Positions 9,001-12,000 of a stretch of DNA of 64,000 nt are shown here, piece after piece. Every line of letters begins with the position of its first letter. Within the stretch, counting starts at the first letter, position 1. The DNA is taken from sequence record KP682389, one strand, 5' to 3'. Origin of the DNA: Escherichia phage PA45. Made by a program: the position numbers.

Positions 9001-12000
9001 ACTGGCTGAAGAGAGAGATACAGCGCGTATACGATGAAAATCATCAGGTGTACGGTGTGCGTAAAGTCTGGCGTCAGTTGTTACGGGAAGGAATCAGGGT
9101 GGCCAGATGTACAGTGGCACGTCTCATGGCGGTTATGGGACTTGCCGGTGTTCTCCGGGGTAAAAAGGTCCGTACGACCATCAGCCGGAAAGCCGTTGCC
9201 GCAGGCGACCGCGTAAACCGTCAGTTCGTGGCAGAACGACCTGACCAGCTGTGGGTGGCTGATTTTACTTACGTCAGCACATGGCAGGGCTTCGTCTATG
9301 TGGCGTTTATCATTGATGTGTTTGCCGGATACATCGTGGGGTGGCGGGTCTCATCGTCTATGGAAACGACATTCGTGCTGGATGCGCTGGAGCAGGCGTT
9401 GTGGGCCCGTCGTCCGTCTGGCACCATCCATCACAGCGATAAAGGCTCTCAGTATGTGTCACTAGCCTATACGGAGCGACTAAAAGAAGCCGGATTACTG
9501 GCATCAACAGGGAGTACAGGCGACTCGTATGACAACGCGATGGCTGAGAGCATCAATGGTCTTTACAAAGCGGAGGTAATACACCGTAAGAGCTGGAAAA
9601 ACCGTGCAGAAGTGGAACTGGCCACACTAACGTGGGTGGACTGGTATAACAATCGACGATTGCTGGGAAGGCTGGGCCATACTCCTCCGGCAGAAGCAGA
9701 AAAAGCTTATTATGCTTCCATCGGAAACGATGATCTGGCAGCCTGAGTTCACAGATAAAACACTCTCCAGGAAACCCGGGGCGGTTCAACGAGCGACATT
9801 GCTCCGTGTATTCACTCGTTGGAATGAATACACAGTGCTGTGTTTATTCTGTTGTTTATGCCAAAAATAAAGGCCACCATCAGGCAGCCTTGTTGTAAAT
9901 GTTGCAGGTATCAAGTAAGTAATTAGATGGAGCGCCATAAATTATGAATTCATCGTTTGTCGGGTCCATCTCCATCTCTTGTCCTATTGCCATTCTTGCG
10001 TCAGTGTCGTCAGCGGCGAAGCATAAAACAGCCCACGCACCCATTGTTTTAAAAAGAACTGCAATTGGCTGTGGTTTTACTGAATTTGCGTTAGCGCGAA
10101 AATCACAAATCGCACTTTCATGAAATTCCATATATCACCTCAAATAAGTGGTTTGCTGCCTAATTTCATTTTCTGGCGACCAACACAAGTCATCTTGCTG
10201 TCAGTTGTTTGGATTTACGGTAGCCTGCCGCGTAAAGAGCTACATTTGGAAGACAAGTTGAGCCTTCATATTTTCTGGTCAACGTTGTCAGTGTTATTAC
10301 TTCTGCTCTCATTGCTGGTTTGCGTTTGCATTGTAAGACCACTCGTGATGGGGTTGGCCTGTGTAGTTTGTCGGAGCTAATCGCCTCCTGACTTTGCAGG
10401 TTTGCGCGACGAGCTCTACGGCGAGAAGCTGCGGTGCCTTTAAATTCTGTTTTTCTGGACATAGATTCCTCCCGAATAAACTTTGGCGATGCAATCTCGA
10501 AGCTCCTCCTGAGACGGTTGCTTCGGCATTGCATCCCACAGCTTATGTGGTTGGGTGATCTGGCTTTTCAGCCACGTAGTCGAGAGTCGACGTTGTTTAA
10601 AGAGCCTGCCAGTCTGTTCCATTTGGCTTCCAGCGTCCTGCTGATGGTTAAATAGTACGATATGTACTTCACTTGGTCAATACAATTTGTTCTAAAACGG
10701 GGCGTTTTTTTACAACGCTTTGTATTTAATAGTATTGTTTTTTAGCGTGGGTGTATTGCCTCGGCGATGTAAGGAGAGATCAGAATTGCGTTGTTTAGTG
10801 AGTTGTATCTATTTATTTTCCAATAAATACAATTGGTTATGTGTTTTTTTGGGCGAGAGGAAAAGAAAACCCGGCATGGAGGCCGGGTTGATGATTAGCG
10901 GTGTGGCCTTGAGCGATAATGCTCACACACATGTTCAAGATTTCCATGCCTTATCCGTTCATAGGCATTCACATGAACTTCTCGATCGAATTGGTCATTC
11001 AAATTGTATGTAGACATCTGTGTTTTCTCATATTGGCGGCAGCCCTACAACCGCTTGAAAAAATGTACCAGACGCGCTAAGGTTACATCGCAAATATTGT
11101 GTACCTTAACAAGGGCTCCTTTTGGAGGCTCTGGTTAAACAGCATCAATGTCGGACTGGGGAGTTGGACATTGTGCTGAATGCTTTTGCATTATTGAGGC
11201 CGAACGTAAACCTTCAGAATTGAAGAGATGCGTTCGGCTTCTTCGTTTGTGATATCGTTAGGAATGCCTTTAATCGTTACTGTAACCCCTGATTCAGGTC
11301 GAAGAACTACTGGAAGATCATAGGTATGAAGTGCATTAGCCTTGCCTTCGACTTTTGTTGGTTCGCCAGTCAAATCTTTTTCCTCACTGGATTCTTTGTC
11401 AATCGGAGTGTATGGGATTTCTTCACCAGACTGGAAAGCTACAAACTTTTTGATTGCACTTTCCATGCGGCTTTTATATGCAGTAATGCTGCTGTCGCTA
11501 GGCTTCGGCTCAGTTGCGTTGATGTATCGCTCGGCAAGCTCATTCACATCAAGCTGAGTAACATCACCCATTTCCTCTTCTTGGACTACCGTTAAGAGGC
11601 GAGCGGATGAGTTTTTTAAATTTCGAGCGGTGGCCTCCTTCATTATGTTCAGCGACATAAGCTCTTCAAGGAAGTCCTTGAATGCCTGCACGCTAACGTT
11701 TGACTTTGCCATTTGCTCTCTCTCTAAGTTATTGACTCAGATCGAGTTTATCCAGGAATTGATTTGCATGCAAGACTCAAGTCTTGAGAATTTCCGTTCA
11801 AGATCCACTCTCAATAAAAAAGGCCGCACCTCTGCGACCTTTCATCTCCTAAATCTCTTTTCTCTTACCTAAAGAAACAGCAGGCTGGGTCAGCCCTAAC
11901 AACTTCAAGTGCATCGGTCAGAGAAAGCTCCGTGCTATACAGGTGTTATTTCATATCTTTTTGCATCCAATAAATTTTCCATCTGTCCAGAGAGCGGATG

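Follow-up and report, generated by a model that had tools for sequence, protein, structure and literature searches.

The window analyzed here, a stretch of 64,000 nucleotides (nt) from Escherichia phage PA45 (sequence record KP682389), comes from a Shiga toxin (Stx)-converting lambdoid phage of the Sp5/VT2-Sakai immunity type. Between N and cI it carries a self-contained two-gene operon of about 0.98 kb (10858-11843, minus strand), which lies in the cI-N "moron" slot and is expressed in the lysogen. The unit consists, in order, of a large gene for the 173-amino-acid (aa) protein ECs1184 (11191-11712, minus strand), a structured leader RNA of about 173 nt (11018-11190, minus strand), and a small gene for a 40-aa protein (10895-11017, minus strand). 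This order of protein, RNA, and small gene is conserved down to 23% identity of the large protein, and the small gene is swapped among three unrelated classes. We tentatively favor the view that the unit is an autonomous, autoregulated, toxin-antitoxin (TA)-like addiction or defense cassette in which the large protein restrains an RNA-gated small effector.

The preliminary description of this interval, made before any database search, had presented it as a single orphan gene, and neither term survived. ECs1184 matches phrog_2602 over its full length (E 3.5e-102) and has 44 close clusters in Enterobacterales. A profile search with ECs1184 retrieved 649 representatives (50% identity clusters) at E ≤ 1e-3; among the matches listed, the proteins are ~160 to 240 aa long and nearly all aligned full length. 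The profile and structure searches that had been proposed as a check matched no known function, and the profile search placed the protein in a large family. The ~300 nt that precede the downstream terminator hold, in addition, the structured RNA and the 40-codon gene. We compared the unit across 29 loci with 23 to 100% identity to ECs1184, drawn from Proteus, Serratia, Salmonella, Cronobacter, and Enterobacter/Citrobacter-type prophages and from metagenomic contigs. In all 29, a small open reading frame (ORF) of 40 to 61 codons begins on the same strand 146 to 175 nt past the large gene's stop codon and runs to within a few bases of the terminator.

The small protein of the window, MSTYNLNDQFDREVHVNAYERIRHGNLEHVCEHYRSRPHR, is rich in His and Cys and matches phrog_21154 (E 5e-8). 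Its gene appears under the names H0092 (original VT2-Sakai record) and gp51 (Salmonella phage Oslo) and is missing from the RefSeq annotation of Sakai. It belongs to class C (40 to 41 aa, His- and Cys-rich) and is conserved in Cronobacter and Salmonella. Class A corresponds to phrog_33859 and comprises basic proteins of 44 to 61 aa with the pattern ...GFRWVKCRFR...LDAHAYGYKCWSFPVR, and class B consists of Cys-rich proteins of 47 aa with a weak match to a treble-clef zinc finger. All three classes are under purifying selection, with differences by codon position of 158/111/625 in class A, 48/47/244 in class B, and 11/4/24 in class C. A common origin of the three classes was considered and dropped, as no relationship among them was detected with hhalign. 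The small proteins matched nothing in Pfam and, in PHROGs, only families of no assigned function. Near-identical large proteins are paired with a class A product in Proteus, a class B product in locus L042, or a class C product in E. coli and Salmonella, so the small gene behaves as exchangeable cargo behind a constant front end of protein and RNA. A hydrophobic 53-codon ORF (10919-11080, plus strand; VT2-Sap22, phrog_14935) runs opposite the leader and the small gene, on the antisense strand. It was considered as a type I toxin and rejected because the Cronobacter version stops after 27 codons, in contrast to the same-strand 40-codon ORF, which is conserved; it probably does not represent a gene.

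The sequence of ~300 nt that runs from the ECs1184 stop codon to the downstream terminator folds more stably than shuffled sequences (minimum free energy z score, -4.8) and is about 90 to 95% conserved among E. coli, Cronobacter, and Salmonella, compared with 79 to 83% for the large protein. The common structure was derived from an alignment of 15 spacers of classes A and B, the sister class of the window's. In these RNAs a hairpin (P1) directly follows the stop codon of the large gene, and a long three-part element (P2) with the invariant internal loops GGAGCACCC and UAGCGGAU comes next. A U-rich tract with an invariant (A)UCAAG then leads to a hairpin (P3) that abuts the Shine-Dalgarno sequence. 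In this alignment 88.6% of cells pair, compared with 39 to 47% with slid partners, and compensatory changes were found in 22 of 38 pairs; none of 500 shuffles reached the observed values. The covariance model built from it located the element exactly between the two genes in seven loci outside its training (L077, L053, L017, L015, L013, L054, and L079), the last of which has a large protein with only 23% identity to ECs1184 (E 1e-9). The leader of the window is a diverged variant with the same succession of parts: hairpin P1, a multi-branch P2 that contains an extra hairpin, U6 with the conserved UCAAG (11054-11063), and hairpin P3. It retains GGAGC-CCC, UAGCG, U6-CAAG, P3, and the GAGA ribosome-binding site, and in a small alignment of the window's class 84% of cells pair (slid controls, 34 to 46%). 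Pairing is predicted between the U6CA tract (11056-11063) and UGAGAAAA at the ribosome-binding site of the small gene, and the P2 stem, with U6 directly behind it, looks like an attenuator. Against Rfam 15, the window gave only a GadY-like match far below threshold (20 bits versus a gathering score of 45; E 0.95), and the leaders of seven related loci gave none. Within P1, the central 15 to 16 nt (11155-11170, minus strand) are exactly inverted between E. coli/Cronobacter (CCAACTCCCCAGTCCG) and Salmonella locus L018 (4545-4560, AGACTGGGGAGTTGG). The inversion keeps the stem and flips the loop, which suggests hairpin-mediated template switching or selection on structure only.

The arrangement recalls known leader riboregulators. 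In Gifsy-1, the structured IsrK RNA controls the translation of the 45-codon prophage ORF orf45. As in IsrK-orf45 and other leader riboregulators, a structured prophage RNA here directly precedes a tiny ORF, and the ribosome-binding site of this ORF is predicted to be sequestered. The ECs1184 leader differs from IsrK in that it has no Rfam match, lies at another genomic position, and is always preceded by a dedicated, conserved protein gene.

Published data show that the unit is transcribed and associated with ribosomes in uninduced Sakai cells, and they bear out the earlier expectation that it is expressed from the uninduced prophage. To place these data in the window, a Sakai genome-version offset of +137 to +142 nt was derived from AsxR and XECs114 by comparison with NC_002695.2 and the window. 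Tree et al. (2014; PMC4104026, Table S2) reported EcOnc20 as a peak of Hfq in crosslinking and analysis of cDNA (CRAC) within Sp5 (1255628-1255753, minus strand), which passed in 4 replicates; a later review lists it without a target. After calibration, EcOnc20 lies at about 10925-11055 (minus strand), a span that takes in P3, the ribosome-binding site, and the 5' two-thirds of the 40-codon gene. Hücker et al. (2017; PMC5597208, S2 Table) reported XECs114 at 1255538-1255645 (minus strand). Its transcriptome values, in reads per kilobase per million mapped reads, were 452 in lysogeny broth (LB), 807 in brain heart infusion (BHI), and 235 in BHI-stress, its translatome values were 135, 88, and 2.6, respectively, and its Ka/Ks-like value of 0.63 was unimpressive. 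XECs114 corresponds to an alternative-frame ORF (10837-10947, minus strand) that overlaps the terminator and the 3' portion of the 40-codon gene. Its signal appears to reflect genuine transcription and ribosome occupancy that were attributed to the wrong reading frame. Both items thus lie inside the unit and on its strand, whereas they were published as an isolated small RNA candidate and an isolated ORF in another frame, neither of them connected with ECs1184, the 40-codon gene, or any conserved RNA structure. In addition, ECs1184 was enriched in the UV-crosslinked RNA-associated proteome of Sakai (2025 Nucleic Acids Research paper, PMC7618764) at a false discovery rate of 0.065.

These data and the strong conservation of the leader raise the alternative that the RNA is itself the functional product, with EcOnc20 acting as an Hfq-dependent regulator in trans or as a riboregulator that senses a ligand or protein and with the proteins serving its expression. 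The replicated Hfq-CRAC peak, the higher conservation of the RNA than of the large protein, the invariant single-stranded motifs GGAGC(A)CCC, UAGCGG, and UCAAG, and the strong covariation all agree with it. However, the publications on EcOnc20 report no northern blot, no separate small transcript, and no target, and the RNA always stands between two genes that are under purifying selection. Additionally, Hfq commonly binds A-R-N motifs at the ribosome-binding sites of ordinary mRNAs. We consider this alternative improbable.

The large protein has the acidic character (isoelectric point, 4.85; net charge, -8) that had been predicted for a leftward 173-codon ORF at 11191-11712, and, also as predicted, no hydrophobic segment that could serve as a transmembrane segment is evident from its sequence. 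Family alignments divide it into three segments: a conserved N-terminal segment of ~100 residues with the motifs T-A-R-N-L-K and Y-K-S-R, a variable linker that is acidic in the window and basic in many relatives, and a conserved C-terminal segment of ~45 residues (LPIPLRxGLxVxIxNLPxDLTxxEAERIAxIIKxxA). An AlphaFold2 model made with a broad alignment reached a predicted local distance difference test (pLDDT) score of 88, with each domain above 90, and showed four helices (residues 8 to 95), a disordered stretch (100 to 128), and a β-hairpin (130 to 151) followed by a helix (156 to 170). The N-terminal domain (residues ~8 to 95) is an integrase SAM-like (core-binding-like) four-helix domain, and several family members gave weak Phage_int_SAM matches, all Pfam matches being below the gathering threshold. 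The same type of N-terminal domain is found in tyrosine recombinases (XerC/D, lambda Int, IntI4; Pfam Phage_int_SAM_1/3/6). However, ECs1184 ends at residue 173 without the R-K-H-R-H/W-Y catalytic domain and has no Phage_integrase Pfam match; its SAM-like domain is instead fused, after the linker, to a β-β-α domain of 45 aa. Lacking a catalytic domain, ECs1184 cannot be a recombinase.

The C-terminal domain (residues ~129 to 170) is a new β-β-α domain. Neither the whole protein nor this domain alone gave anything significant in Pfam, NCBIfam, PADLOC, or the PDB sequences, and Foldseek searches of PDB and BFVD, made with the whole protein from a model earlier than the one with a pLDDT of 88, returned no match at E < 0.1. 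In PADLOC-DB v2.0.0 the window protein matched 0 families, and 34 family members gave only scattered single matches (E ≥ 0.002). Our literature search returned two papers on ECs1184, and the two-domain family was not described in the papers on defense hot spots. The pattern V-x-I-x-N-L-P-x-D-L-T-x-x-E-A of the C-terminal domain recalls the first strand and helix of an RNA recognition motif (E 0.4 to 0.6) and can serve only as a lead.

The unit is bounded by intrinsic terminators on both sides, in agreement with the preliminary description. Upstream, at 11816-11843 (minus strand), a GC stem (11822-11839) is followed by a U6 tract (11816-11821), with a folding free energy (ΔG) of -15.9 kcal/mol and a z score of -3.7. 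The motif GGTCGCAGArrTGCGGCC followed by a T-run is kept in the E. coli, Salmonella, and Proteus loci, and Cronobacter keeps the stem alone; this terminator ends the cI/pseudogene (pRM) transcript. Downstream, at 10858-10889 (minus strand), the stem AACCCGGC/GCCGGGTT (10868-10889) is followed by the U-rich tail UUUUCUUUUC (ΔG, -14.3 kcal/mol; z, -4.7). It begins 5 nt past the stop codon of the small gene, and an equivalent terminator lies 3' of the small ORF in every locus whose sequence was compared there. Within these limits the unit has a predicted sigma-70 promoter at 11745-11773 (minus strand), with the -35 element TTGCAT (11768-11773), a 17-nt spacer, and the -10 element TAAACT (11745-11750), so that transcription probably starts near 11738. 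The layout of terminator, TTGCAT/TTGCGC/TTGCAA, 17-nt spacer, and TAAACT or TAGAAT is common to five genera. Cronobacter and Proteus have the better -10 element (TAGAAT), and Serratia has TTGACT-17-AAAAAT instead. The conserved promoter and the insulating terminators support the earlier suggestion of an independent transcription unit.

The palindromes that had been pointed out as a possible operator are present and overlap the -35 element. The candidate operator (11771-11788) consists of CAAGAC-N4-GTCTTG (11771-11786) and the overlapping CTCAAG-T-CTTGAG (11776-11788). This operator-like repeat occurs only once in the window. Inverted repeats of 12 bp are not in themselves rare (2.8 near-matches expected by chance in the window), and what makes this one significant is that it is conserved across genera and overlaps the -35 element. 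The half-sites AAGAC/GTCTT over the -35 element are kept in relatives of at least 50% identity, and locus L083 has a perfect AAGACTGATCAGTCTT with a second copy over the -10 element. More distant subfamilies have other promoter-overlapping repeats, CATCGATCGATG and ACGAGAC-A-GTCTCGT. Thus, inverted repeats overlap the promoter in all subfamilies, and their sequence shifts with the protein subfamily. Since the repeat is restricted to the unit's own promoter in 64 kb, the regulator looks self-directed, and the single site together with the tracking of repeat and protein subfamily suggests autoregulation by the large protein, which would predict this pattern. In most subfamilies, GATC (Dam) sites recur in or beside the promoter and operator, as in TCGATCTG just downstream of the -10 element of the window (11740-11750) and as TGATCA, CGATCG, or GATCGATC in other operators. 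A tie to Dam methylation or hemimethylation is possible.

The surroundings of the unit were mapped from the depositors' annotation of the Stx1-converting phage AP005153. The segment at 10600-12300 is 100% identical to VT2-Sakai, AP005153, Stx2 phage 1717, phage 2851, the PA phages, and many O157:H7 chromosomes. OL/pL was placed at about 10652-10727, N at 10190-10534 (minus strand), and cI at 12214-12909 (minus strand), with cro to its right, which confirms the location between N/pL and cI given in the preliminary description. The upstream terminator does not directly follow cI, as had been thought. The 370 bp between them are filled by a decayed DUF3024/phrog_3467 gene (about 11871-12184, minus strand) with an internal stop codon and a frameshift, of which the Prokaryotic Genome Annotation Pipeline calls a fragment of 53 aa (WP_434087148.1); an intact 113-aa gene lies at the same place in Proteus prophages. 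ECs1184 itself is ORF23 of Sakai Sp5, orf22 of VT2-Sakai, ORF b63 of AP005153, and WP_001130059.1, and it is named "hypothetical protein" in every record.

In Enterobacterales, the unit always lies between an S24-type cI, of which there are several alleles, and N, on the strand of cI, and this slot is kept for the family in prophages of Escherichia, Salmonella, Cronobacter, Proteus/Morganella/Providencia, and Serratia. An extra gene, either DUF3024 or an unknown gene of 345 aa, sometimes lies in this interval as well. Relatives with 23 to 37% identity are stand-alone units with large intergenic flanks outside immunity regions. Their neighbors are hicAB on one side and a two-component system on the other, an acetyltransferase gene and ruvC, a capsid-gene fragment that precedes the unit, or unannotated phage-like genes. 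These contexts mark the unit as autonomous, mobile, and not intrinsically part of the immunity circuit. In the Salmonella and Serratia prophages, a convergent gene for a very acidic protein of 58 to 67 aa (phrog_3946; ...EMIxxL...DVDLAVELAIDVLR) lies between the unit and pL/N (L018, 4861-5064, minus strand; L009, 5871-6047, minus strand); it is absent from the window.

In total, 234 of 5,426 complete E. coli genomes carry the unit, all in full-length copies that are at least 99% identical and mostly in the clonal O157:H7. A search for natural loss of function is therefore uninformative, apart from insertion sequences (IS). Such uniformity is what a neutral, hitch-hiking moron, conserved through recent horizontal spread, would leave. 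This explanation is nevertheless very hard to credit, given that the unit is conserved down to 23% identity, that both genes are under purifying selection, and that the RNA shows compensatory changes.

Genetic evidence comes from the study of Mondal et al. (2016; PMC5155283), who constructed 43 mutants of Sp5 with in-frame, marker-free deletions of genes of unknown function by sacB allelic exchange and did not obtain deletions of ORF23 (ECs1184) and ORF21 (ECs1180). Their design retains 9 nt at each end of an ORF, so the promoter, the leader, and the small gene would have been left in place in the attempted ECs1184 deletion. ECs1180 (9880-10131, minus strand; 83 aa, phrog_2471) lies just downstream of N in the cI-repressed pL operon. 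Mondal et al. proposed that ECs1184 maintains lysogeny. In this case, it would act on the phage circuit, by helping cI, by blocking an antirepressor, or by stopping leftward readthrough into pL/N, its loss would lead to induction and death, and the small gene and the RNA would be accessory. The apparently lethal deletion in the Sp5 lysogen, the constant position of Enterobacterales members beside cI and pL/N, and the DNA-binding type of the N-terminal domain fit this proposal. We nonetheless regard it as unlikely, since the operator-like repeat is found only at the unit's own promoter, the relatives of 23 to 37% identity keep the RNA and the small gene in non-immunity and non-prophage contexts, and the family is paired with many different cI alleles.

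Natural insertions also speak against a role in lysogeny maintenance. A 1.31-kb IS1203/IS629 element lies within the unit in at least six complete O157 genomes (644-PT8, 180-PT54, NJS001, 08-3914, 06-3462, and 93_161312), natural lysogens in which it separates the promoter from the gene. The 644-PT8 copy is at 11737-11742, past the -10 element and ahead of the ECs1184 start codon. Thus, cutting both genes off from their native promoter is tolerated, unless the IS supplies a promoter of its own. The window itself contains three 1.31-kb copies of this IS3-family element (IS629/IS1203; 8479-9788, 25663-26973, and 28390-29699) that are mutually 99.9% identical, the first of them about 90 bp downstream of ECs1180.

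The position between cI and pL bears on the proposal, made in the preliminary description, that the gene is a candidate for an exclusion or defense function. This slot holds rexAB, nun, sieB-like, and other exclusion genes. Like lambda rexAB, HK022 nun, and 933W stk, the unit combines this map position with the strand of cI and expression in the lysogen. Unlike them, it shows no sequence or fold similarity to these genes, contains no membrane protein, has its own promoter behind a terminator, and belongs to a family that also occurs outside immunity regions. The lambda RexAB arrangement of a RexA-like sensor and a RexB with four transmembrane helices, cotranscribed with cI from pRM, was not found here. 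A nontoxic superinfection-exclusion or defense pair that acts directly on incoming phages, with the failed deletion as a technical accident, would suit the expression in the lysogen, the slot shared with known exclusion genes, and the variable cargo (DUF3024, SieB, and the 345-aa gene) in the slot or the adjacent region of related loci. Such a pair would, however, leave the elaborate translational and transcriptional gating of the second gene unexplained, and, in addition, no PADLOC model matched and many family members lie outside prophage immunity regions. We therefore judge it quite unlikely. The earlier proposal thus keeps its support from lysogen expression and the conserved cI-N slot and loses some from the missing PADLOC match and the placement of distant relatives outside immunity regions. 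The failed deletion points to an addiction or TA-like unit or to maintenance of the lysogen at least as much as to classical exclusion.

The TA-like cassette that we tentatively favor would work as follows. The large protein would bind the inverted repeat over its own -35 element and repress its own operon, and, directly or through the leader RNA, it would keep the small protein unmade or inactive. The leader, in turn, would hide the ribosome-binding site, and it carries a stem and U-run that resemble a terminator. The small protein would be the effector, probably metal binding and harmful when unrestrained. Loss of the large gene alone would then be lethal, and removal or silencing of the whole transcript would be tolerated. 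A drop in the large protein, for example, upon infection by another phage, would release the effector and could result in abortive infection or exclusion. We prefer this reading because it covers more of the facts than the others do: the autonomy and mobility of the unit, its private operator, the gated second gene, the exchangeable effector, the failed deletion that spared the effector, the tolerated IS insertion that cut off both genes, and the placement in a slot of exclusion genes.

Several resemblances to type II TA systems (phd-doc of P1, relBE, and hicAB) support the comparison. Like them, the unit is a small autonomous two-gene operon in which the regulator gene comes first, a candidate inverted-repeat operator overlaps the promoter, and the first protein combines a domain of nucleic-acid-binding type with acidic disorder. 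The first gene was likewise reported as nondeletable, and family members are scattered on prophages and chromosomes, one of them beside hicAB. In the 29 loci, a single promoter and a single terminator enclose both genes, which share a strand, as expected of cotranscribed neighbors; the spacer of 146 to 175 nt is atypical. In contrast to type II systems, with which there is no homology, a structured RNA of ~150 to 175 nt separates the genes, and the second product, of 40 to 61 aa, is swapped among unrelated classes without covariation of the first protein.

Other observations weigh against a TA-like cassette. The architecture is unlike any known TA type, and neither protein showed homology to known toxins or antitoxins in Pfam, NCBIfam, or PADLOC, nor did the small one in PHROGs. 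The small protein is not hydrophobic and matches no known toxin, and we infer its toxicity. In classical type II pairs the genes adjoin or overlap, and the antitoxin covaries with its toxin. Here the genes are separated by ~170 nt of RNA, and the large protein does not covary with the class of the small ORF, which argues against specific protein-protein neutralization. The genetics are weakened in that the failed deletion of ECs1184 is a single negative result with no complementation; it may have another cause, since ECs1180 failed in the same study, and an outward promoter in the IS could weaken the argument from the insertions. Tagged ECs1184 gave only a background signal in a polynucleotide kinase RNA-crosslinking assay (PMC7618764). 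Taken with its enrichment in the RNA-associated proteome, this result means that uninduced cells make ECs1184 and that its RNA binding is at most weak or highly specific. Finally, the covariance model of classes A and B did not recognize the leader of the window (4.8 bits, wrong register). The homology of this leader to the sister-class RNA rests on shared motifs and on the intermediate locus L052, whose sequence can be aligned with that of the window and which the model weakly recognized in the correct register (15.6 bits). For these reasons the TA-like reading is offered as a tentative one. Its more specific form, in which the unit represents a new class of three-part, RNA-gated TA or abortive-infection system composed of a DNA/RNA-binding protein, a riboregulatory RNA, and an exchangeable micro-protein and switched by a signal or by the protein, is possible but doubtful.

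Before this analysis, ECs1184 was on record only as a hypothetical protein that could not be deleted, and EcOnc20 and XECs114 stood as unrelated items. Our searches of Rfam, Pfam, PADLOC, and the literature turned up no description of the three-part unit, the RNA motif, the two-domain family, or the micro-protein classes. EcOnc20 and XECs114 can now be reinterpreted as parts of one operon with ECs1184. ECs1184 is one of only two early genes of Sp5 that resisted deletion, and its link to the RNA and the micro-gene makes this puzzle experimentally addressable. The main Stx2a phage lineage of E. coli O157:H7 carries the unit, as do prophages of Salmonella, Proteus, Serratia, Enterobacter, and others. 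If our interpretation is correct, it would add a new pair of protein domains and an RNA motif absent from Rfam, three new families of micro-proteins would gain a defined role, and the unit may offer a lever on the stability of Stx prophages. Should the unit belong to an RNA-gated class of this kind, it would, in Stx phages, make the prophage hard to lose or protect the lysogen.

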